Assembly: GCA_964537895.1 (NCBI GenBank) | Contig: CAZIDK010000003.1 | Location: 1,171 to 65,170, forward strand | Direction: 5' to 3' | Length of the DNA: 64,000 bases | Origin: an uncultured Gammaproteobacteria bacterium | GTDB taxonomy: Bacteria > Patescibacteriota > Microgenomatia > Levybacterales > UBA12049 | Shown: positions 1,247 through 38,091 of the stretch, piece after piece | Position numbering within the stretch: position 1 is the first letter of the stretch | Layout: each line of letters begins with the position of its first letter | Made by a program: the position numbers and the translations under genes | Notes under the pieces: model-generated | The model's database searches: none | Told to the model about the DNA's origin: nothing | The model's input: the letters and a program-made list of their open reading frames with translations, nothing else

Positions 1247-1876
1247 CTAGAGATTCCTGTTTCTTATCGTAACCGAGGTCTGAAACGGGACGCTTGCCTT
1301 TTTTTCTGCAAAATTACCTGGATTATTGTCGGATAGGGTCAGATTTATTCCAATCGTAGGGGCTTGGCCAAAATTAGTCTGCGTACAGGTAAAAGAGCAC
1401 AAAACAAGCGAAACGGCTGAGGTGTCTATAAGAGATGCGCCGTTTGAGGCAATCGTTGAACCATTACAGGAAAATATTGTCTGACCGCTGTCAAATGAAG
1501 TTATTTTTATATACTGATAGGCAATTGGAGCAGGAGTAGGTGAAGGAGAGGGAGGAATTGCTTGGGTACAATTAGTTTTGTAAAAAACGCCGTCCGTACT
1601 CACACCGTTAAAGTTTTGAGCATAAATAATCATTTTTGACATTTGCGTAATTGCATCGTTGCCGTTTTGCCTAACACTATCCAAAACATTAGATTTACTT
1701 CCTCCGCGCAAGGAAGAAATAAGAATACCGGCTACGATAACACCAACAACAACCACAATTGCCATAACTGCCAAAAGTTCTACCAATGTATAACCCTTCT
1801 CGGAATTGAAAATTGAAAATTGCCCGCCCCGCTTCACTTGGCGAGGCCGGGGAAAATTGAAAATTCGTTTTTTCAT
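1247..1876 (-). CDS. prepilin-type N-terminal cleavage/methylation domain protein (pilin-like, 'pseudopilin'); the leader peptide contains an in-frame repeat-element insertion
   Basis: Has the G|YTLVELLAVMAIVVVVGVI class III signal. Unusually long leader MKKRIFNFPRPRQVKRGGQFSIFNSEKG. PSPSPTPAP linker further in. Confidence 0.75.
   Translation of the reverse strand: MKKRIFNFPRPRQVKRGGQFSIFNSEKGYTLVELLAVMAIVVVVGVIVAGILISSLRGGSKSNVLDSVRQNGNDAITQMSKMIIYAQNFNGVSTDGVFYKTNCTQAIPPSPSPTPAPIAYQYIKITSFDSGQTIFSCNGSTIASNGASLIDTSAVSLVLCSFTCTQTNFGQAPTIGINLTLSDNNPGNFAEKKASVPFQTSVTIRNRNL
1803..1867. repeat. GC-rich palindromic element (core CCCGCCCCGCTTCACTTGGCGAGGCCGGGG) flanked by GAAAATTGAAAATT repeats, inserted in frame in the pilin leader
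   Basis: Near-identical copies at 6280-6338 and 37868-37985; all are translated in the same orientation. Confidence 0.7.
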
Positions 1877-4236: not shown

Positions 4237-4701
4237 TTACGGGTTTTGTACGGTATAAGACCAATTGGCTGTACCATTACACGGTGATACGTTTGCCGCA
4301 TCTTTTTGACTATCATTTGTGTTTTCCAAACAAGCAATTATCGAATATGTGGCGCCTGTAGAAGAAAAAGTATAACTTCCTCCTAAAGCATCGCATGGAA
4401 TCTTTTGCATATACGTTGTTGTGTTATATGTAAAAGGTAACCCGCAAGTTGGTAAGGACAGCGGATAACTGCTATTGTCTGCTCTGTAAATTTCGAGGGC
4501 AGATTGTATTTGCCTTAAATCTGATTTTTTTTGCGCATCCCTTGCCCTTTGCCTTACGCCTATAAAATTGACCATAAGAAGAGTTGCCAAAACGCCAATA
4601 ATAGCAACAACTATAAGAAGCTCTATAAGCGTAAAACCTTTTTTAAAATTCTGAATTTTGTCCTGAGCTTGTCGAATGGATGAATTATAAATTATTTTCA
4701 T
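4237..4701 (-). CDS. GspG/PulG-like pilin (major pseudopilin-type)
   Basis: KKGFTLIELLIVVAIIGVLA, with the downstream motif LRQIQSALEIYRADNSSYP typical of GspG/ComGC-like pilins. Confidence 0.8.
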   Translation of the reverse strand: MKIIYNSSIRQAQDKIQNFKKGFTLIELLIVVAIIGVLATLLMVNFIGVRQRARDAQKKSDLRQIQSALEIYRADNSSYPLSLPTCGLPFTYNTTTYMQKIPCDALGGSYTFSSTGATYSIIACLENTNDSQKDAANVSPCNGTANWSYTVQNP

Positions 4702-5234: not shown

Positions 5235-6091
5235 AAGTTACCGCTGCAAGTTGTAGCTCCCGGTCCGGAATAACAAGTTAGGGTCCCTCCGTATATTGTA
5301 CACTGGTTAGATGTTACACTGTTACAGAGTCCGGCGCTGACCGCAAAGTAATTCGGACTGCAATTAAACGGCGTAGGCGTAGGCGTAGGCGTAGGCGTTG
5401 GGGTAGGAATTCCGCTTCCTGTTGGGGTAGGGATAGGGGGGGTTGGCGTTGGGGTAGGTGTTGGAACAGGCGTTGCGAATAAAGGAGCTGGCAATGAGTT
5501 TGCGGATATGTAAGCGCAATCTACTTTTCCCGATAGCACGCAATAATTATAACCTGAACTTTGATAATCTACCGGCAAACAGTTAGATAGCTCTGTTAAA
5601 GGACAGGAGGTTTGCACGTCTTGGGCTGAAGATAATTTAGCAAATAGCACGTTCCACTGCGGACATTGAGTTGTATCTGTTTGGTAAAGATATGACGGAT
5701 TAGAGCCATTTGAAAAATCCGGATCTTGAGGAACTTTTTGCATATACACTATTGAACCGCTGCTAAACGGAGCTCCCATTGTTAACGAAATAGGATAACA
5801 GTTTTTATCACTATAGTAAGCATCAAGAGAGTTTCTTATTTGGAATACATCATGCTGACGCTGTGCATCTCTTGCTTTCTGGAGCTGCCTTATCGGATTA
5901 ATAGTCACTATTAGAAAGGTGATAAGCACAGACAATATAATAATTACAACTACTAATTCTATTAGGGTAAACCCAAAAAAATTATTATTTTTGGAATTAA
6001 TAAATCTCCATAAAAGAGGGCTAAAATTGTACCTAATATTAAAAAGGGGCCAAAAGGAATTGTGTCTTTTATAGACCTTTTTTTTCGCCAT
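5222..6091 (-). CDS. pilin-like protein with a long leader, GspG-like N-domain, long PT-repeat linker and Cys-rich C-terminal module
   Basis: FGFTLIELVVVIIILSVL; (TP)n linker TPVPTPTPTPTPPIPTPTGSGIPTPTPTPTPTPTP; C-terminal CxxC-rich segment. The annotated start overlaps the peptidase gene by 130 nt, so the true start is uncertain. Confidence 0.65.
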   Translation of the reverse strand: MAKKKVYKRHNSFWPLFNIRYNFSPLLWRFINSKNNNFFGFTLIELVVVIIILSVLITFLIVTINPIRQLQKARDAQRQHDVFQIRNSLDAYYSDKNCYPISLTMGAPFSSGSIVYMQKVPQDPDFSNGSNPSYLYQTDTTQCPQWNVLFAKLSSAQDVQTSCPLTELSNCLPVDYQSSGYNYCVLSGKVDCAYISANSLPAPLFATPVPTPTPTPTPPIPTPTGSGIPTPTPTPTPTPTPFNCSPNYFAVSAGLCNSVTSNQCTIYGGTLTCYSGPGATTCSGNLCTQ

Positions 6092-6831
6092 ATAATTAGT
6101 ATGATACCTATAATTGCTCCTGTCAAGAAAGCTAAATACAAGGCTAAAATTATCTTCGGAAAACCCAGTATGAGCCCAAGCAAAAACGACAGTTTTACGT
6201 CTCCAAAACCCATACCTTTACCCTTGGTAATCAAGAATAGAATAAGAAAAAAAACGAATGCCCCAATAGCGGAAAAAACAAAATTGAAAATTGAAAATTG
6301 CCCGTCCCGAGTGAAATCGAGGGGAAAATTGAAAATTAAATAAATAGAGCTTACGATTATTGCCGGGAAGACTACTTTATCCGGAATAATTCCAAATTTT
6401 AAATCTTCAAAAAAAATAACAATAAAACTTGAGACAATAAATAAATAATAAACCAGGCTGATTAAAGATTGAAGATTAAAGATTAAAGAATTAGAAATTG
6501 ACCCGCCTGCAACGCTTTGCATAGCAATGCGGGCAGGAAATTGAAAATTAAGTCCATAAACAAACATAAATGTGGTTAAGAATAAAATTCCCGTAGAAAA
6601 CTCTATGATAGGGTAGAATATACCAATGGACTTATGACAGTATCTGCATTTTCCCTTCAGCATTAAAAACGAGAGTAGGGGAATGAGATCATACCAAGCA
6701 AGTTCTTTTTTACAAAACTCGCAATGTGATCTCCCTTTTGCAATTGTTTCCTTACGAGGCAATCTGTCGATAGCTACATTTAAAAAGGAGCCGATGAAAA
6801 CTCCTATTGCAAATATGAATAAAAACTCCAT
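5962..6831 (-). CDS. pilD: prepilin peptidase (A24 family, PilD/ComC-like) carrying two in-frame repeat-element insertions
   Basis: N-terminal CxxC..CxxC (CEFCKKELAWYDLIPLLS..GKCRYCHKSI), multiple TM helices and a GFGDVKL-type motif. Confidence 0.8.
   Translation of the reverse strand: MEFLFIFAIGVFIGSFLNVAIDRLPRKETIAKGRSHCEFCKKELAWYDLIPLLSFLMLKGKCRYCHKSIGIFYPIIEFSTGILFLTTFMFVYGLNFQFPARIAMQSVAGGSISNSLIFNLQSLISLVYYLFIVSSFIVIFFEDLKFGIIPDKVVFPAIIVSSIYLIFNFPLDFTRDGQFSIFNFVFSAIGAFVFFLILFLITKGKGMGFGDVKLSFLLGLILGFPKIILALYLAFLTGAIIGIILIIWRKKRSIKDTIPFGPFLILGTILALFYGDLLIPKIIIFLGLP
6280..6338. repeat. GAAAATTGAAAATT-flanked GC-core element (variant core CCCGTCCCGAGTGAAATCGAGGGG) in frame inside pilD
   Basis: Encodes FNFPLDFTRDGQFSIFNF. 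Same flanks and orientation as the copy at 1803-1867. Confidence 0.65.
6494..6552. repeat. second element type (core CCCGCCTGCAACGCTTTGCATAGCAATGCGGGCAGG, GAAATTGAAAATT flanks) in frame inside pilD, followed by AGATTAAAG x3
   Basis: Encodes LNFQFPARIAMQSVAGGSISNSLIFNLQSL. The same 36-nt core recurs in intergenic DNA at 43794-43829 and, as a variant, at 18113-18152. Confidence 0.65.
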
Positions 6832-11642: not shown

Positions 11643-12296
11643 ATGCAGAGCTTTTTAATTATAGGAAAGCCAATTGACAAAGCAAAAAATTACGCTTTTG
11701 ATTTTTGTTTAAAAAACAAGATAGATACGCTTGATATAAGTCTTATTGAATCCGAAAAAGCAGTGGGAATTGCGCAAGTCAGGGACTTTCAAAAGAGAAT
11801 TTTTCTTAAGCCTTTTAAAAGCAATCAGAAAGCGGTAATTTTGGAAGCTAGTAATGGATTAACGCTTGAGTCACAAAACGCGTTATTGAAAGTTTTGGAA
11901 GAGCCGCCAAAGAATACTATTATAATACTACTTGTAGAATCAGACGAATCGGTTCTGCCGACTATCCTTTCCAGATGTAAAATTATTTCGCTTGATAAAG
12001 ATAATGTTGAGCAAAAAGATTTAGCGGAATACGAAAAAATCTTGCTGTCTTTAAAAAACGCAGGGGTGGGGGATAGATTAAGATTGGCTCAAGACAAATC
12101 GAAAGATAAAGAAACTGCTTTGCAGTTTGTCGAAGGTTTGATTTTGGCTTCCGAAGTTCTTCTTAGGAATTCGAAAGATAAAGAATTTGTGGGAGCAATA
12201 AAACTTATGCAAAAAACCTATACGGAAATAAAATCAACAAATTCTAATCTTCGTTTGGCAATGGAAAACTTGCTTTTGAACCTAAAAATGGTCTAA
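11643..12296 (+). CDS. holB: DNA polymerase III delta-prime subunit-like (short HolB)
   Basis: Sensor/box motifs LLKVLEEPPKNTIIILL and TILSRCKIIS with no Walker A. Divergent from pilB with only a 41-nt spacer. Confidence 0.65.
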   Translation: MQSFLIIGKPIDKAKNYAFDFCLKNKIDTLDISLIESEKAVGIAQVRDFQKRIFLKPFKSNQKAVILEASNGLTLESQNALLKVLEEPPKNTIIILLVESDESVLPTILSRCKIISLDKDNVEQKDLAEYEKILLSLKNAGVGDRLRLAQDKSKDKETALQFVEGLILASEVLLRNSKDKEFVGAIKLMQKTYTEIKSTNSNLRLAMENLLLNLKMV

Positions 12297-12304
12297 TTAA
12301 CTTC

Positions 12305-12601
12305 ATGAGTCAAACAGAAATAGGCGCACCAACTACGCCAACAGAAGCTAGGGAAACGCAGAGCCCCGAACGACGTCTAGTCTATGGGATCATGAGAAGA
12401 ATAGATAGGAGAGTAGAAAGAACTCTTGCCAATCCAAACTTAACACCCGATCAAATGCAAGAGCTTCTTCTACTTGCTAATCTTACGAAACTTGCCTTGG
12501 AATTAAGATGTCTAATGCCAGCAGTAAGATTTGGCGAAGAACTTGTTGAGCTATCCGATCCCTTAATGATTCCTGAAGCAACTCCCACAGAGCTAGGATA
12601 A
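12305..12601 (+). CDS. hypothetical protein; GC-rich orphan
   Basis: 98-aa ORF starting 9 nt after the holB stop. Markedly higher GC than the flanks. No motifs. Confidence 0.35.
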   Translation: MSQTEIGAPTTPTEARETQSPERRLVYGIMRRIDRRVERTLANPNLTPDQMQELLLLANLTKLALELRCLMPAVRFGEELVELSDPLMIPEATPTELG

Positions 12602-12602
12602 C

Positions 12603-12900
12603 CTCGGGGAAAATTTGAGTTTGAATAAAATGTTTCCACGTATCGATACATCACAACAAAACATTATTACTGTAAGTATACTAGTATATTAGTAATTAGT
12701 TCGACGGAAATAAATCTCAAACTCAGAAAACTAAATAACACAGGGGTCAAAAAAAATTGTGGGGAAAATTTGGGGTTGAATAAAATGTTTTCACGTATCG
12801 ATACATCACTACAAAGCTTTTAGGGGTTCAACCCCTAAAATAGATTGATAATTCAACAAGAACCGAGTAAGTGAAAAATTAAACTGGAGGGGAAAATTTG
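12603..12900. repeat. cluster of interspersed repeats: GGGGAAAATTTG(A/G)GTTGAATAAAATG units, palindromes GTATCGATAC and TATACTAGTATA, REP-like GGGGTTCAACCCC
   Basis: Units at 12605, 12763 and 12892. The block 12630-12695 is about 85% identical to the reverse complement of 54790-54870 and 55640-55720. Confidence 0.7.
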
Positions 12901-12926
12901 GGGTTGAGATTTTTACTTAAAACCGT

Positions 12927-13172
12927 TTATTTTCTGTTTCGGTCTTCAATTTGACGCAATTTACTACCAACAACAAACCCAAAACCCAAAGCAAGTCCCC
13001 ACGACCCAACAAACACAACAGCATCTTCTACGCTATGTATTCCCTTATCAGCTGCGCTTTTCCCTACAATTGCACTCGCTATAGCACTAACACCCGATAC
13101 AACTATAACAGCTTCGTCTCTTTTTATGACCTCCGTTATCCTATGTCTTAGTCCTGGGTTTCTTTCGCTCAT
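12927..13172 (-). CDS. small hydrophobic hypothetical protein
   Basis: 81-aa ORF with two hydrophobic segments, inside the repeat island. Confidence 0.3.
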   Translation of the reverse strand: MSERNPGLRHRITEVIKRDEAVIVVSGVSAIASAIVGKSAADKGIHSVEDAVVFVGSWGLALGFGFVVGSKLRQIEDRNRK

Positions 13173-13256
13173 AAACGGAATTATAGCATGAGGATTTTCT
13201 AAAGCAAATTGGGTGGAAAATTTGGATTTGCTCGCACCGACCCCTGGGGTTGAAAG

Positions 13257-13847
13257 CTAGTCTTCGAAAACTAACTCTTTTACTTGAACTGCTTCTGCTT
13301 CCGAAATGTCATATTCAGTAAATTGTTTATAATCTTTTGCCGGATTATTCGCAGCAAAATAATTAAGTATGTACGAAGAATCTACTAGGTCATCTTTCTT
13401 ACCATCAATATAAGCTGTGTAGCTTGACCAAGGATAAAGCGCAAGCTCAACCCCAGGGGTTGAAATTGGAATCGGATTTCGGTGTATATAGCGGGATACT
13501 TGTAGGAGATACTCATCTGAATCTATTAATTTTGCCTTAAAGCGGCCTTGGAAAAGACTTCCTACTTCATTATATTTAATATTAAAATATTTCGCAAAAC
13601 TGGTCGCCAATCTTAGCATAAAAAACGTGATAGGTAAGTCTGTGTCTTGCCTAAGAAGAAAATGAAAATGATTTGGCATTAAACAATATCCCAAAACGGT
13701 TACTCCAAATTTATCTTTATATTCTCTCGCTCGTTCCAAAAACCTCTTGTAATCTCTATTCTGAAGAAAAATATTTTGCTTTCTATTACCTCTGTTGTAA
13801 ACATGATAATAAGAGTCCTTTCGAAAATATCTAGGAGGAGTAGCCAT
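13257..13847 (-). CDS. HUH/Y1 tyrosine transposase, IS200/IS605-TnpA or REP-associated (RAYT)-like; the ORF is open to 14009 but Met55 at 13847 is the more likely start
   Basis: YHVYNRGNRKQNIF, then the HuH motif LMPNHFHFLL, then catalytic Tyr context SRYIHRNP. GGGGTTGA/TCAACCCC palindromes flank it at 13239-13252 and 13877-13891, and one lies inside at 13447-13461. Confidence 0.6.
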   Translation of the reverse strand: MATPPRYFRKDSYYHVYNRGNRKQNIFLQNRDYKRFLERAREYKDKFGVTVLGYCLMPNHFHFLLRQDTDLPITFFMLRLATSFAKYFNIKYNEVGSLFQGRFKAKLIDSDEYLLQVSRYIHRNPIPISTPGVELALYPWSSYTAYIDGKKDDLVDSSYILNYFAANNPAKDYKQFTEYDISEAEAVQVKELVFED

Positions 13848-14009
13848 GTTCTTAGTAAAACACGAAAGTCTTTCAGCGTCAACCCCAGGGGTTGACGCAT
13901 GGAGATAACTCTTTAAGACGTTTGACGTTTTGGAAAGTTTGGGAGAAAAAGCAGGTTGGCAGGTCGAAGATGCCCTGTGGGTAAAAATTTGGTTTTGAAA
14001 TTTTTGCAC

Positions 14010-14038
14010 TTGACAAGCGTATATACAATGTATATACT
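14010..14038 (+). promoter_or_regulatory. promoter TTGACA-N17-TATACT overlapping the palindrome GTATATACaatGTATATAC; likely autoregulatory operator for the toxin-antitoxin pair
   Basis: Read directly from the sequence, 10 nt upstream of the dinJ ATG. Confidence 0.45.
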
Positions 14039-14047
14039 TTACATATT

Positions 14048-14350
14048 ATGAATACTGCGGTAATCAATATCAAAACTCAACCTGAAACGAAAATAAAAGC
14101 TCAACTGGTCGCAAAAGAACTAGGGCTTAATTTGAGTTCTATTATTAATGCATACCTTACTCAGTTAATAAAAACTAAAACTGTTGCTTTTAGCGTAAGA
14201 GAAGAACCTACTAAATATCTTTTAGAAATGCTTAAGCAGTCACGAAAAGAGATTAAGACCGGAAAAATATCTCGAAGTTTTAGTAAGGCAAGCGATGCAA
14301 TTGGGTATTTGGACAAAATGATTAAAAATGAAAAAAATCAACAGAATTGA
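14048..14350 (+). CDS. dinJ: DinJ/RelB-family antitoxin (type II toxin-antitoxin system)
   Basis: N-terminal ribbon-helix-helix pattern INIKTQPETKIKAQLVAKELGLNLSSIINAYLTQLIKTKTVAF. Overlaps the toxin gene by 23 nt. Confidence 0.7.
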   Translation: MNTAVINIKTQPETKIKAQLVAKELGLNLSSIINAYLTQLIKTKTVAFSVREEPTKYLLEMLKQSRKEIKTGKISRSFSKASDAIGYLDKMIKNEKNQQN

Positions 14351-14609
14351 TTTTTCCGGCCCTTTTGATAAACAACTTAAAAAGGCGCCGCTTAATATAA
14401 AGATTGCTTTCAAGAATAGGCTTACAATATTTATAAAAGACCCATTTAATTCTCAACTAAGAAACCACCAGCTTACAGGAAAACTCAAAAATTACAGAAG
14501 CATAAACATAACAGGCGACTGGCGCGCTTTGTATTCAACAAATGAAATTGATAAAGAAAACGTTGTAATATTCGAAATCCTCGGAACCCACAGTCAGTTA
14601 TATAAATAA
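14328..14609 (+). CDS. yafQ: YafQ/RelE-family toxin (mRNA interferase)
   Basis: 93 aa. HQLTGKLKNYRSINITGDWRALY...VVIFEILGTHSQLY matches the RelE/YafQ fold signature. Confidence 0.7.
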   Translation: MKKINRIDFSGPFDKQLKKAPLNIKIAFKNRLTIFIKDPFNSQLRNHQLTGKLKNYRSINITGDWRALYSTNEIDKENVVIFEILGTHSQLYK

Positions 14610-14643
14610 AATAACCCCGGAAAATTTGGTTTTGAAAGTTAAT

Positions 14644-15030
14644 CTATCTCGATTTCTTTATTGGTTCACTTTTTGAAATCTCCTCGTATAATTTAAGTAG
14701 GCTTATTTTATAAAGTTCCAAAATTTTGCTATGGAGCCCTTGCCAATCTTCCCTTAGGTAAAATTCGTTAAGATTGTTCTCTTTTAAAACTTTTACCAAG
14801 GTTTTTTCGTGGTCAGGATGTCCGAATAAATTCACTATTTGATTTACGGTTCTCATTCCGAAAACATCAAATTTTATCGGCAATCCTAAAGCATAAAGAA
14901 ATATGTATAAACTATTTATAGGTTTTAAAAAATCATCCTTGTTAATTTTAGGTAATAGCTTGACCATATCTTCTTCAGAAAATCCATGTTGCTTTGTTTG
15001 CGAACTTATATCGGTAAATAAAGTTCGCAA
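14644..15030 (-). CDS. hypothetical protein; second gene of a two-gene orphan operon
   Basis: 128-aa ORF with no motifs. Confidence 0.4.
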   Translation of the reverse strand: MRTLFTDISSQTKQHGFSEEDMVKLLPKINKDDFLKPINSLYIFLYALGLPIKFDVFGMRTVNQIVNLFGHPDHEKTLVKVLKENNLNEFYLREDWQGLHSKILELYKISLLKLYEEISKSEPIKKSR

Positions 15031-15188
15031 GGTTATACATTTACTAATTAGACTATCTTTGCTGTTTACTATTTCCTGCTGTCCAATTAAAAGTTCGCTA
15101 TCGTTAAGTAATTTAAATCCGATTTTGCTATGGGAAAGAGAGATTGAATTTATATTGTTTCTTATCTTACTTATTTCCGTAATCGTTT

Positions 15189-15983
15189 TTATATTTGCGT
15201 ATTTCTCCTTCTCTTTCTCTTTCTCTTTTTCTCTTCTTTTTCCCCTCTGTTTTCTTCTGCTGATAGAATCTCTTGTGCCCTACCATTGCCATTTTCTTTT
15301 ATAATCCTAGTCAACTCTGTTATCAATTGTCCTTTCCATGTAATCAAAGTTTTTGCAAGAATAATATCTAGGTCATCCTCTTTTAATTCCGCGTAGTTAT
15401 CTATGAAATATTTTATTTCTGGAGTCGGATTGCTTCTCCATAAATACTGAAGAGATATTTTTCTTACATCAAATTCAAATTTGTTACTAATGACAATCTT
15501 TCTTAAACTTTCCGATACGTCTTTTACGCTATTAACCTTTATTAAATAGTCACATACTGTGGCTATTGAGAAATGATAGAGCTCTCCTCTGCCGGTTTCT
15601 GAATTAGCAAAATCTACTATTAAGCTTAATGCGTATTTTATAATTTCTCCATCTGAATAATTAAATTTTGTAAAAATTTCATAACACCATATTTTGTCTT
15701 TCGTGCTTACCGCCTCTTTCCAAATTTGAATACCCACCCTCAATACCTCACCAGACTGTATCCTAGAAAGCGAGGATATGAAATAATGTGAGGAAGGACT
15801 ATATTTTGAATTGTGTTTTTGCCAAGCTGAATAAATAGGATAAATAAAAACGGGGCTACCTATCTCTTCCATTTCGCGTAAAATACGCTCGTTCTCATCA
15901 TCTGAAATGTTTTCGTATAATTTCGCTATTATCTTTGAATTGTATTCATCAGCCATATGAATTATTATACTCTGTGCGATCAA
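15189..15983 (-). CDS. hypothetical protein with a strongly basic/acidic C-terminal tail (EKEEKKRKRKRRRNTQI) encoded by a CT-rich microsatellite
   Basis: 264-aa ORF. The tail is encoded by the imperfect (TCTCTT)n tract at 15196-15260. Confidence 0.45.
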   Translation of the reverse strand: MIAQSIIIHMADEYNSKIIAKLYENISDDENERILREMEEIGSPVFIYPIYSAWQKHNSKYSPSSHYFISSLSRIQSGEVLRVGIQIWKEAVSTKDKIWCYEIFTKFNYSDGEIIKYALSLIVDFANSETGRGELYHFSIATVCDYLIKVNSVKDVSESLRKIVISNKFEFDVRKISLQYLWRSNPTPEIKYFIDNYAELKEDDLDIILAKTLITWKGQLITELTRIIKENGNGRAQEILSAEENRGEKEEKKRKRKRRRNTQI

Positions 15984-16103
15984 TCATTACTATCTAACTA
16001 CCTAGCCCCTAGAAATTCTTCTCTATATTTGTTCCTTCGACTCCGCTCAGGATCTCCATCATCCTTAAATTTTCTACTAGAAATTTAAGTCTGATTCTGA
16101 TAA

Positions 16104-18086
<1,983 letters not shown>

Positions 18087-23998: not shown

Positions 23999-24832
23999 AT
24001 GATAATAGATGGCAAAAGCATTGCTTCCCAAATCCTCGAAAGTCTAAAAGCGCAAGTTGAAAAACTAAAGAGAAAAGGCATTATTCCTCACTTGCATATA
24101 ATTATTTTTTCCGAAGACTCTTCTTCCGCTTCTTACGTCAGACAAAAAATCTTAAAAGGGAGATTGATTAGCGCAAAAATAACCGTAGTTAAAAAAAATC
24201 CTAAAATTAACACTGTAGATTTGGTTAAGAAAATAGAAAAACTAAATAAAGATAACTCTATACATGGAATTATTGTTCAAAGACCAATGCCCAAACAGCT
24301 TAACGAAGAGGACATAACCCTAGCTGTTGATCCTAAAAAAGATGTTGACGGTTTTCATCCGCAATCAAGATTTGGCATTCCTGTTGTCCTGGCAGTTTTA
24401 AAAATATTGGAAACGGTTCACGAAACAGAATTTGAGACCTGGCTCAAATCACAAAAAATTGCTGTTATCGGTAAGGGATTAACTGCCGGAAAACCCATTG
24501 CAAATTTTTTACGTAAATTAGGGGTTCAACCCCTAATTATAGATAGTGAAACTAAAAATAAGAAAGAACTTTTAAAAAATTCAGATATTATAATAAGCGC
24601 GGTTGGAAAGCCAGATGTTTTTGATAGTTCTGAAATTAAAAACGGCGCAGTATTAATAGGCGTTGGTTTACATAAAGAAACCGACGGAAAGTTTCACGGA
24701 GATTACAACGAAGAAAAAATCAAAAATATTGCCGGCTTTTACACACCGACTCCCGGCGGAGTGGGGCCGGTTAACGTTACGATGTTATTAAAAAACCTGG
24801 TCGAATCTGCCGAAGATAATTTAACTACTTAG
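23999..24832 (+). CDS. folD: bifunctional methylenetetrahydrofolate dehydrogenase/cyclohydrolase
   Basis: DVDGFHP and PGGVGPVNVTMLLKN motifs. 277 aa. Confidence 0.9.
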   Translation: MIIDGKSIASQILESLKAQVEKLKRKGIIPHLHIIIFSEDSSSASYVRQKILKGRLISAKITVVKKNPKINTVDLVKKIEKLNKDNSIHGIIVQRPMPKQLNEEDITLAVDPKKDVDGFHPQSRFGIPVVLAVLKILETVHETEFETWLKSQKIAVIGKGLTAGKPIANFLRKLGVQPLIIDSETKNKKELLKNSDIIISAVGKPDVFDSSEIKNGAVLIGVGLHKETDGKFHGDYNEEKIKNIAGFYTPTPGGVGPVNVTMLLKNLVESAEDNLTT

Positions 24833-37150: not shown

Positions 37151-37288
37151 GCACGTTCGATGCGACTCAGTACAAAAAATGCTGAGCGCAGTCGCACGTT
37201 CGATGCGACTCAGTACAAAAAATGCTGAGCACAGTCGCACATTCGACAATGCTCAGTGCGATACTGAGTTTATCGAACGTATCGAAGG
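37151..37288. repeat. tandem 43-bp hairpin repeat (2 full units plus an inverted partial unit)
   Basis: GCACGTTCGATGCGACTCAGTACAAAAAATGCTGAGC(G/A)CAGTC twice; the third unit ends with inverted TCGAACGT. Confidence 0.7.
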
Positions 37289-37299
37289 TATTTTTGTGC

Positions 37300-38091
37300 T
37301 TATTGGCTGATTACCTTACTCAATTCCCCAGGCAATGGAGACTCTAATAAGACTTGCTTATTGGTTATTGGGTGTATGAATGAAATTTTGTGTGCGTGCA
37401 AGAAAACGCGCTTGAGAATTTTTCTGTCCTGCCTTGAGGTTTTTCTTCCCGCATATAAAAAGTCAGCAAAAATAGGATGACTAAAATACTTTAAGTGAAC
37501 TCTTATCTGATGCGTTCTTCCTGTTTCCGGATAAAGCTCCAGGAGGCTCATCGGCTCTTCTTTTTTTCCCGATACTAAATACTTAATACTTAATACTTTA
37601 TACTTCGTAACCGCTTCCCTACCGCCTGCCAAAACCCCAAACTTTTTTCTGTTCCAAGGCAGTCTTCCGACAGGAACATTTATTTCTCCTATCTCCGGCA
37701 CAACTTTCCCGTGGCAAAGCGCAAGATAAGTTTTTTTTATAACTCTTTCTTTAAACTGTTTTTGCAGATTTTCAAAAGCCGGAAGGGTTTTGGCAACAAG
37801 TAAAATTCCCGAAGTTTCTTTATCAAGCCTATGAACTATTCCGCTTCTTTTATAAAAATCCGACTCCTCGTCAATTCTGAATTCTGCCCGCCCCGCTTCG
37901 CTTGTCGAGGCTGGAGAACTCTGCCCGCCCCGCTTCGCTTGTCGAGGCCGGGGAACTCTGAATTTACTGTCCAGCCAATCCTGTACCGTTTCCTCCCCTA
38001 TCGTAGTATCGGAACGATTAACAGTTATTCCCGCGGGCTTATCCAAAACCAAAACGTCATCGTCCTCGTAAATTATTTTAATATTACTCAT
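37300..38091 (-). CDS. RluA-family pseudouridine synthase with an in-frame tandem repeat-element insertion
   Basis: HRLDKETSGILLVAKT catalytic motif. The insert encodes RVPRPRQAKRGGQSSPASTSEAGRAEF just before the catalytic loop. Confidence 0.85.
   Translation of the reverse strand: MSNIKIIYEDDDVLVLDKPAGITVNRSDTTIGEETVQDWLDSKFRVPRPRQAKRGGQSSPASTSEAGRAEFRIDEESDFYKRSGIVHRLDKETSGILLVAKTLPAFENLQKQFKERVIKKTYLALCHGKVVPEIGEINVPVGRLPWNRKKFGVLAGGREAVTKYKVLSIKYLVSGKKEEPMSLLELYPETGRTHQIRVHLKYFSHPIFADFLYAGRKTSRQDRKILKRVFLHAHKISFIHPITNKQVLLESPLPGELSKVISQ
37868..37985. repeat. two tandem copies of the GC-core element CTGCCCGCCCCGCTTCGCTTGTCGAGGC(C/T)GG(G/A)GAACT flanked by GAATT repeats, in frame inside rluA
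   Basis: Core is near-identical to 1818-1850. The copies are 40 nt apart, so they are read in two different frames. Confidence 0.7.

Follow-up and report, generated by a model that had tools for sequence, protein, structure and literature searches.

A probable RAYT-like Y1 nuclease gene with its own palindromes in the holB-gyrB spacer of a Patescibacteria genome

We consider a stretch of DNA (12.6-14.64 kb) within a 64-kb window, the whole sequence analysed here, of a Patescibacteria genome (candidate phyla radiation, CPR) with about 38% GC. The stretch carries, on the minus strand (13257..13847), a gene for a 196-aa HUH tyrosine nuclease/transposase of the Y1 kind that resembles the REP-associated tyrosine transposases (RAYTs; REP, repetitive extragenic palindrome), and this Y1 gene is accompanied by copies of a short palindrome, CAACCCCWGGGGTTG. 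We hold it probable that the Y1 gene is a domesticated, vertically inherited single-stranded DNA nuclease/transposase of the RAYT/TIRYT kind and that CAACCCCWGGGGTTG is its cognate hairpin. The original prediction, made from the letters of the window, had singled out the same open reading frame (ORF) as a HUH/Tyr transposase; the ORF is intact, and its NHFH and YIHRNP motifs, its match to the Pfam family Y1_Tnp and its predicted fold all bear this out. The longer version that had been offered, beginning with a GTG at 14009, finds no support; the length of the homologs, 194-201 aa, places the start at the ATG at 13847.

We begin with the palindromes at the gene. On the gene strand CAACCCCWGGGGTTG occurs three times, with centres 41 nt before the ATG, at +391 within the gene and 11 nt past the stop codon, and the 17-nt form TCAACCCCAGGGGTTGA or a close variant has three matches in the window where 0 are expected. 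The upstream palindrome, GCGTCAACCCCAGGGGTTGACGC (13876..13898), contains TCAACCCCAGGGGTTGA at 13879-13895 and, as single-stranded DNA, is predicted to form a hairpin with a stem of 10 bp (-12.1 kcal/mol, z = -5.4). The internal palindrome, TCAACCCCAGGGGTTGA itself (13447..13463), encodes S-T-P-G-V-E (residues 129-134), and the downstream palindrome is the degenerate form CCGACCCCTGGGGTTGA (13237..13253). The octamer GGGGTTGA, a half-site of the palindrome, is concentrated in the same place: eight of the eleven copies in the window fall within 12.77-13.90 kb, compared with 1.6 expected window-wide.

The three-copy layout is kept in all eight close relatives, a set of loci that were retrieved singly and whose proteins are 66-88% identical to that of the window; no record has a protein identical to it. 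In seven of them the upstream copy is found at -41 to -48, and in the eighth (L170) at -21; ACGC invariably follows it. The internal copy falls between +385 and +397. In L170 the downstream copy overlaps the 3' end of the gene, and in the other seven of the eight loci compared it comes after TAG-CYTT with its centre at +11. The spacings between successive copies are 432-440 and 210-216 nt in the window, in the closest relative (L081) and in four further relatives. At the internal copy the codons ACC/GCC-CCW-GGG-GTT, which encode (S)TPGV(E), are kept in 8/8 relatives, while elsewhere in those Y1 genes GGG makes up 10% of the Gly codons and ACC 14% of the Thr codons. Since these rare codons are kept at the internal copy, the DNA sequence is constrained there beyond the needs of the peptide.

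The next question is whether this association of gene and palindrome extends to more distant homologs. Among the matches listed in genome and metagenome contig scans, 158 loci have proteins 34-51% identical; they are mostly Patescibacteria, and some are labelled as Omnitrophota, DPANN archaea or other phyla. Under a strict criterion, an identical palindrome no more than 130 nt upstream and no more than 130 nt downstream of the gene, 89 of the 158 listed loci (56%) have one lineage-specific palindrome on both sides. The same test applied as a control to 985 other ORFs from the same loci, each 150 aa or longer, is positive for seven, several of which are second Y1 paralogs. The Y1 gene is therefore flanked by a palindrome family specific to it, the arrangement known as a REPtron. 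Altogether there are 82 distinct palindromes, which differ by lineage and have a median stem of 9 bp, with centres some 41 nt ahead of the start and some 20 nt past the stop codon. Where a copy also lies within the gene it is always the lineage's own palindrome, and it occupies one of only two sites in the protein: 25 copies are found 9-32 aa after the Tyr, 14 copies 16-33 aa before the HuH motif, and 0 between the two motifs. We also considered whether the flanking palindromes are parts of longer terminal inverted or direct repeats, and rejected this, as the similarity of the flanks is random (7/24 positions in either orientation) with the exception of a few loci.

Many of the closest listed homologs from the genome collection (L001, L009, L015, L017, L020 and others) come from metagenome-assembled genomes titled 'uncultured Gammaproteobacteria' or Nanoarchaeia/Bathyarchaeia. 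In a family centred on Patescibacteria, such titles could reflect mismatched record labels or lateral transfer. Scans of viral contigs for the palindrome, and for the repeat units that are described below, gave isolated matches only, with no Y1 gene near them.

We turn our attention to the protein. The profile search that had been proposed as a check gives a score of 53.3 bits for Pfam Y1_Tnp (PF01797) against a cut-off of 23, which places the protein in the superfamily, and the match covers profile positions 4-121 of 121. The HUH motif NHFH occupies residues 59-62, and H60, H62 and Y120 are invariant in an alignment of 24 homologs. An AlphaFold2 model made with these 24 homologs (pLDDT 83, pTM 0.83) has as its best Foldseek match in the PDB the E. 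coli TnpAREP in complex with a REP hairpin (4er8_A; E = 2.5e-7, target-normalised TM 0.73), followed by the TnpA proteins of IS608, ISDra2 and IS200; every one of the top 28 matches is a Y1 transposase. Y120 is placed by the model within a helix (111-123), so that the protein has the HUH motif and the single catalytic Tyr of this enzyme class. Residues 129-134, encoded by the internal palindrome, form a loop by DSSP assignment, after the Tyr-bearing helix and 9-14 residues past the catalytic Tyr. After residue 143 the model has short helices only, and Pfam finds no second domain. The full motif set is NHFH, FQ, YIH[LR]NP and an invariant WSS. Among the 158 listed loci NHFH is present in 151, FQ is the commonest variant of the W-motif, YIHLNP occurs in 56 and YIHRNP in 38; the pattern Y-x-x-x-NP, nearly always as YIHxNP, is found in 136, and this is the Y---NP signature of class 2. 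Motifs and predicted fold together support a RAYT-like class of Y1 HUH enzyme rather than a standard IS200 TnpA. By motifs only, the protein fits class 2 of Quentin et al. (2018), and the second signature of subclass 2.1 is the closest.

It is useful to compare this arrangement with the systems that have been described. The RAYT/TnpAREP REPtron (E. coli 4ER8; groups 2 and 3 of Bertels; subclasses 2.2, 2.4 and 2.5 of Quentin) has in common with it the Y1 HUH domain with Y---NP, 4ER8 being the best structural match, as well as lineage-specific palindromes that flank the gene and also occur elsewhere in the genome. RAYTs are single-copy, housekeeping-like and vertically transmitted (PMC5581495), and the low-copy, vertical inheritance that we describe below is of the same kind. 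A further likeness is to subclass 2.4, in which palindromes stand in frame within the gene itself and for which alone in-gene REP insertions have been reported (PMC6006769); in subclass 2.4, however, these lie between HuH and Y (PMC6006769), and here they lie before HuH or after the Tyr. The palindromes themselves are different. A GT[AG]G or C[TC]AC foot is found in 5/82 of the distinct palindromes and in none of those in the window, so that they are not canonical REPs; they are short and perfect, whereas REPs are long and bulged. Proteobacterial REPs are present in tens to hundreds of copies per replicon, and here the relatives have about one copy per 19 kb and the window has none that is dispersed. 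The original prediction of a RAYT with its REPs is right about the enzyme, which is RAYT-like and sits among palindromes of its own; that the repeats are REPs in the strict sense does not hold.

The TIRYTs provide the other comparison. Subclass 2.1 comprises group 1 of Bertels and most TIRYTs, and the study that defined it found no REP-like structures near its genes (PMC6006769). Its signature, NH[YF]H/FQ/Y[IV]HLNP with an SS tail (PMC6006769), is matched here by NHFH/FQ/YIH[LR]NP with the C-terminal WSS. Di Nocera et al. (2013) described TIRYT genes as having non-GTAG repeats on either side at fixed distances; part of these repeats are self-complementary and belong to moderately abundant families arranged as dimers (PMC3733652). 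The fixed-distance, non-GTAG flanking repeats of the present genes resemble such a TIRtron. The resemblance has its limits: the palindrome flanking seen in 56% of our listed loci has no counterpart reported for subclass 2.1 (PMC6006769), the protein has 196 aa where that subclass has a median of 238 and lacks, by Pfam, its helix-turn-helix-like C-terminal domain, and the TIRYT consensus GGGGWSAS does not fit GGGGTTGA.

How the gene is inherited bears directly on the possibility that it is simply an ordinary minimal insertion sequence (IS) of the IS200 type, which we regard as quite unlikely. Such an element would consist of tnpA only, about 660 bp long with hairpins at its ends, and would transpose as a unit and home to the holB-gyrB spacer. 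The hairpin-gene-hairpin layout, which spans 13237-13898, suits it, as does the resemblance of the fold to the TnpA of IS608, ISDra2 and IS200, with which the gene would also have in common a hairpin on each side and presumed recognition of single-strand hairpins. The position of the gene suits it less well. The Y1 gene adjoins holB in six of the eight close relatives and lies between holB and gyrB in the four whose contigs reach gyrB. In five relatives the Y1 and pilB proteins are, respectively, 74/72, 70/78, 67/69, 68/68 and 66/66% identical to those of the window, and in the same relatives the Y1 identity exceeds that of holB (38-54%) and folD (49-54%). In identity and position the Y1 gene is shown to behave like a core gene, as conserved as pilB and at a fixed chromosomal place; divergence that follows pilB across genomes is not what an active IS would give. 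The nucleotide homology with L081 stops a few nt from the outer palindromes, yet the site is shared, as expected of an old resident gene. The remaining two close relatives (L168 and P0077) have the gene in a different context, which the IS explanation accommodates and from which it follows that some relocation occurs.

Copy number and motifs speak to the same question. The window has one Y1 gene. Its gene calls contain no tnpB, nor do those of any homologous locus for which the called genes were listed. No locus has near-identical copies; where two Y1 genes are present they are divergent paralogs, 31-47% identical to the query. Low copy number, absence of tnpB and vertical inheritance thus go together in the window and in the loci of the relatives. 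The protein has Y---NP, of class 2, and not the Y---Q of IS200 subclass 1.1 (PMC6006769, Table 1), and it carries a 60-aa C-terminal extension that IS200/IS605 TnpA proteins do not have. What can still be counted for an IS is the second divergent paralog in 13 loci, and the flanking copies of L084 and L085, which are direct repeats about 30 nt long. The original prediction had named two outcomes that would undo it, a standard IS200 transposase accompanied by tnpB and palindromes without enrichment, and neither is what we find. The second paralog, no more than 10 kb from the first, is found in L084 (9879-10547), L009, L016, L040, L044, L047, L056, L065, L070, L092, L102, L149 and L161, and at several of these loci the paralog or an adjacent ORF is itself palindrome-flanked in the control scan.

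Copies of the palindrome are also found away from the gene. Outside the gene and its 200-nt surroundings, 56 extra cognate copies occur in 1.05 Mb of the relatives' sequence, compared with 4-11 in cross-locus permutations, an enrichment of about tenfold. At least one extra copy is found in 30 of the 89 palindrome-flanked loci, and the extra copies are often doublets 16-36 nt apart. One such doublet lies within the folD gene of L085 (2168-2203), where the Y1-associated palindrome forms an in-frame insertion of ten residues, TPGVDAQKPQ, which the folD genes of the window and L170 lack. In another relative (L082) folD has an unrelated 32-residue insertion in the same loop, and the window folD has neither. 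In-frame palindromes in coding genes are familiar from the Rickettsia palindromic elements (RPEs). Intragenic REPs have likewise been described (PMC3733652), and the Y1 gene and the L085 folD similarly show palindromes tolerated in protein loops. Unlike these, the inserted piece here is only 15-35 nt long and tied to a dedicated Y1 gene, and the other genes of the window show no insertion of this palindrome.

By analogy with IS608 TnpA and E. coli TnpAREP, we propose that the Y1 protein would bind the hairpin when it is extruded from single-stranded DNA, for example from the lagging-strand template. It would then cut beside the hairpin through a 5'-phosphotyrosine link, after which the strands could be rejoined, and such cutting and rejoining may occasionally copy or move the palindrome. 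Both catalysis and mobilisation are thus ascribed to the protein from what its relatives do. Binding at the upstream copy may in addition regulate the expression of the Y1 gene itself, because this copy overlaps a conserved TTGACG hexamer, which on the gene strand consists of the right arm of the palindrome plus 2 nt.

That overlap is equally at the heart of a purely regulatory explanation, in which the upstream palindrome is an operator, the downstream one an mRNA end or terminator and the internal one an attenuator, and the Y1 protein, or a host factor, acts on them by binding alone and moves no DNA. We consider it unlikely that this is the whole of the matter. The fixed distances from start (about -41) and stop (+11) in the close relatives are what regulatory sites would show, the TTGACG hexamer is followed after 17-19 nt by an A/T-rich stretch and then by an ATG without a Shine-Dalgarno sequence, and the window has few or no dispersed copies. 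The promoter scan, however, calls no promoter at the upstream palindrome, none of the cognate palindromes is followed by a T-tract, and neither the roughly tenfold enrichment elsewhere in the relatives' genomes, often as doublets, nor the in-frame doublet in the L085 folD would be expected of operators and terminators. The regulatory role is, moreover, compatible with a RAYT-like system, as autoregulation and rare mobilisation can coexist. The distance from the conserved TTGACG to the ATG is about 30 nt (window 13848-13900, gene strand; L081 3761-3808), which, together with the missing Shine-Dalgarno sequence, suggests that the Y1 transcript is leaderless or has a very short leader.

Several results weigh against the interpretation of the Y1 gene as a domesticated RAYT-like nuclease with a cognate hairpin, and must be set beside it. 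The NCBIfam RAYT equivalog (NF047646, REP_Tyr_transpos) scores 50.2 bits, under its cut-off of 80, so that the profile check supports the superfamily and not the RAYT equivalog, in which the protein also departs from the REPtron enzymes. A phmmer search of the PDB with the single protein has no match, and the Y1 profile finds PDB entries by sequence only marginally, with E about 0.03. In the window the downstream hairpin is weak (-2.8 kcal/mol, no better than shuffled sequences). The dyad symmetry of the palindromes would fit a dimeric, double-strand DNA-binding role equally well. Further, 69 of the 158 listed loci fail the strict shared-palindrome criterion, and the different context in L168 and P0077 is a departure from the fixed location. 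Finally, no copy of the cognate palindrome is dispersed outside the island in the 64-kb window, and activity in this genome is thereby unproven. Apart from the three copies at the gene, only a related hairpin some 420 nt away and the half-site-bearing units described below are seen, and the palindrome system in this genome appears nearly quiescent.

The related hairpin, TTTTAGGGGTTCAACCCCTAAAA (12818..12840), has a 10-bp stem (-8.6 kcal/mol, z = -4.4) and shares GGGGTT/AACCCC with the cognate palindrome. It is terminator-like on the minus strand, the sole such site found in 12500-14750, and L081 has this hairpin too, at a distance of 106 nt upstream of its Y1 gene. The palindromes at both ends of the gene and inside it that had been reported at the outset are real as far as TCAACCCCAGGGGTTGA is concerned; the second one, GGGGTTCAACCCC, lies at 12823-12835, which is some 420 nt past the 3' end of the gene. 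GGGGTTCAACCCC is present in the window's folD as well, as had been noticed, at 24521-24533, but it is not an insertion there: the residues LGVQPL align without a gap with MNIEPI, KGIEPT and LEVKPL of three other folD proteins.

We now consider the island in which the Y1 gene is embedded. The spacer between holB (DNA_pol3_delta2-like, 11643-12296) and gyrB (16116-18086), with pilB adjoining, is 3.8 kb long and contains an 81-aa ORF, the 196-aa Y1 ORF, a RelB/YafQ pair and two further ORFs without assignment. It is punctuated by a second repeat, a unit of 19-27 nt with the 19-nt form GGGGAAAATTTGGGGTTGA (in shorthand GGGGAAAATTTGG, GGGGAAAATTTGGWTTTGAAA or GGGGAAAATTTGGTTTTGAAA) and the consensus AAnTAACCnnGGGGAAAATTTGGWTTTGAAA. 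With no more than three mismatches GGGGAAAATTTGGGGTTGA has three matches where 0.09 are expected, and in looser form there are six copies, all on the plus strand. The six units of the original prediction are accordingly real, at 12606, 12761, 12889, 13213, 13979 and 14617, within 0-4 nt of where they had been placed. The first two belong to a 60-nt direct repeat: copy 1 (12606..12665), a unit followed by AATAAAATGTTTCCACGTATCGATACA, is 90% identical to copy 2 (12761..12820), which starts with the unit GGGGAAAATTTGGGGTTGA. The third unit (GGGGAAAATTTGGGGTTGA, 12889..12907) borders the cassette of the 81-aa ORF (12927..13172, minus strand), which has no family match, is absent from L081 and lies as cargo between two units. 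The fourth (GTGGAAAATTTGGATTTGC, 13213..13231) abuts the end of the Y1 module common to L081, whose nucleotide homology begins at 13232 and which has a unit of its own in the corresponding place (4430-4450). The fifth (GGGTAAAAATTTGGTTTTGA, 13979..13998) stands between the Y1 module and the relB promoter, and the sixth (CCGGAAAATTTGGTTTTGA, 14617..14635) directly follows the stop codon of the toxin gene.

Units five and six bracket the RelB/YafQ cargo cassette (14048..14609, plus strand). It consists of a RelB/DinJ antitoxin gene (14048-14350; Pfam RelB, 3.6e-07) and a YafQ/RelE toxin gene (14328-14609; Pfam YafQ_toxin, 2.7e-09; NCBIfam RelE_StbE, 37.4 bits against a cut-off of 27.9), and ahead of relB is a promoter-like TTGACA-17-TATACT (14010-14038) that matches at 11/12 positions. 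We rejected a general role of the units as promoters or UP elements, since a good promoter-like site follows the copy at 13979 alone and three copies have no downstream gene on the same strand. PADLOC and PHROGs gave nothing useful for the ORFs of the island. Rfam has no match in 12300-16200 at E <= 1, and the repeat blocks are therefore not a known RNA.

When the islands of the window (12300-16115) and of L081 (888-5470) are compared by blastn, what they have in common is holB, the Y1 module (13232-13908, 87% nucleotide identity over 678 nt), the hairpin at 12818-12840, the units and gyrB. All other genes differ: the window has the 81-aa ORF, RelB/YafQ and the two ORFs without assignment, and L081 has a methyltransferase gene, a nucleoside deoxyribosyltransferase-like gene, a DUF4325 gene and others. 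Since only the Y1 module, the hairpin and the units are common to the two islands, the units mark the borders of cassettes in a variable island. Units are found only in the window (six) and in its closest relative L081 (five), in a single orientation and always intergenic; more distant relatives keep the palindromes and lack the units. Read from the DNA, the unit is a separate, lineage-specific repeat, distinct from the cognate palindrome.

These observations invite the explanation that the nest of repeats is the scar of a hot spot at which cassettes are exchanged by some other recombination, the Y1 gene being a mere resident and the repeats unrelated to it. The little that the two holB-gyrB spacers share, the single orientation and intergenic position of the units and their absence from distant relatives with palindromes are all in keeping with it, and it would account for the units. 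It does not account for the palindromes, which track the Y1 gene throughout the family. The two repeats also meet: the half-site GGGGTTGA of the palindrome is found in two units, those at 12761 and 12889, and the 60-nt block after the unit at 12761, of which 12606 has a second copy, shows homology to the L081 sequence that abuts the upstream palindrome of its Y1 gene. From these two facts we conclude that units and palindromes have recombined with each other. In addition, family searches of the island ORFs find no recombinase besides the Y1 protein. We therefore judge this explanation very unlikely for the nest as a whole.

A much bolder reading would join all of the repeats in one system. In it, the CPR-centred Y1 clade would be a vertically inherited hairpin-editing system, the in-gene hairpin at one of two permissive loops would serve as a site of self-recognition or autoregulation, the enzyme would occasionally write hairpins in frame into other genes, and in this lineage it would also drive the exchange of cassettes at the GGGGAAAATTTGGWTTTGAAA units. 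We offer it as a speculation with little chance of being right; if it were true, the holB-gyrB island would be a HUH-based analogue of an integron.

On the more modest RAYT-like reading the system is of a known kind, and for its lineage and its form the searchable literature yields no description; a search for RAYTs or REPs in Patescibacteria or CPR returned nothing relevant. REP/RAYT systems are known mainly from Proteobacteria, Cyanobacteria, Bacteroidetes and larger genomes. Non-IS tnpAY1 genes in particular are commoner in larger genomes (PMC6006769), and the present analysis finds a RAYT-like system in Patescibacteria, whose genomes are streamlined. What is new is the Patescibacteria-centred clade, the perfect non-GTAG palindromes, the in-gene copies at two new positions and the fixed chromosomal location. 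The 82 palindromes, each tied to its own gene, amount to a natural experiment on the co-evolution of Y1 enzymes and hairpins, and the hairpin/enzyme pairs identified here can be tested directly. Small palindromes in frame in an essential gene (folD) of these organisms are documented as well. The unit-punctuated island, the least explained part, might serve as a simple model of how cassettes turn over in CPR genomes. The result extends a known kind of system and overturns nothing in the current understanding.

The window contains other repeats. GC-rich hairpins (e.g. CCCGCCCCGCTTCACTTGGCGAGGCCGGG) bracketed by GAAAATTGAAAATT are found at 1808-1865, 6279-6337 and 6500-6549 and form a different repeat family. 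They stand in frame in a pilin-like gene (1247..1876, minus strand) and in a prepilin peptidase gene (5962..6831, minus strand), where the GAAAATTGAAAATT brackets translate as IFNF...QFSIFNF. A connection between these in-frame elements and the units had been suggested through GAAAATTGAAAATT, and we rejected it: GAAAATTGAAAATT flanks different hairpins, only the A/T-rich heptamer GAAAATT is in common, and the motif is not enriched in the window (11 matches with no more than two mismatches vs 7.5 expected). At 37879-37960 a 37-nt tandem repeat contains the core CCCGCCCCGCTTC of these hairpins again. A 43-nt tandem repeat (37151-37257; 2.2 copies, 96% identity, consensus GCACGTTCGATGCGACTCAGTACAAAAAATGCTGAGCACAGTC) has a short hairpin inside.

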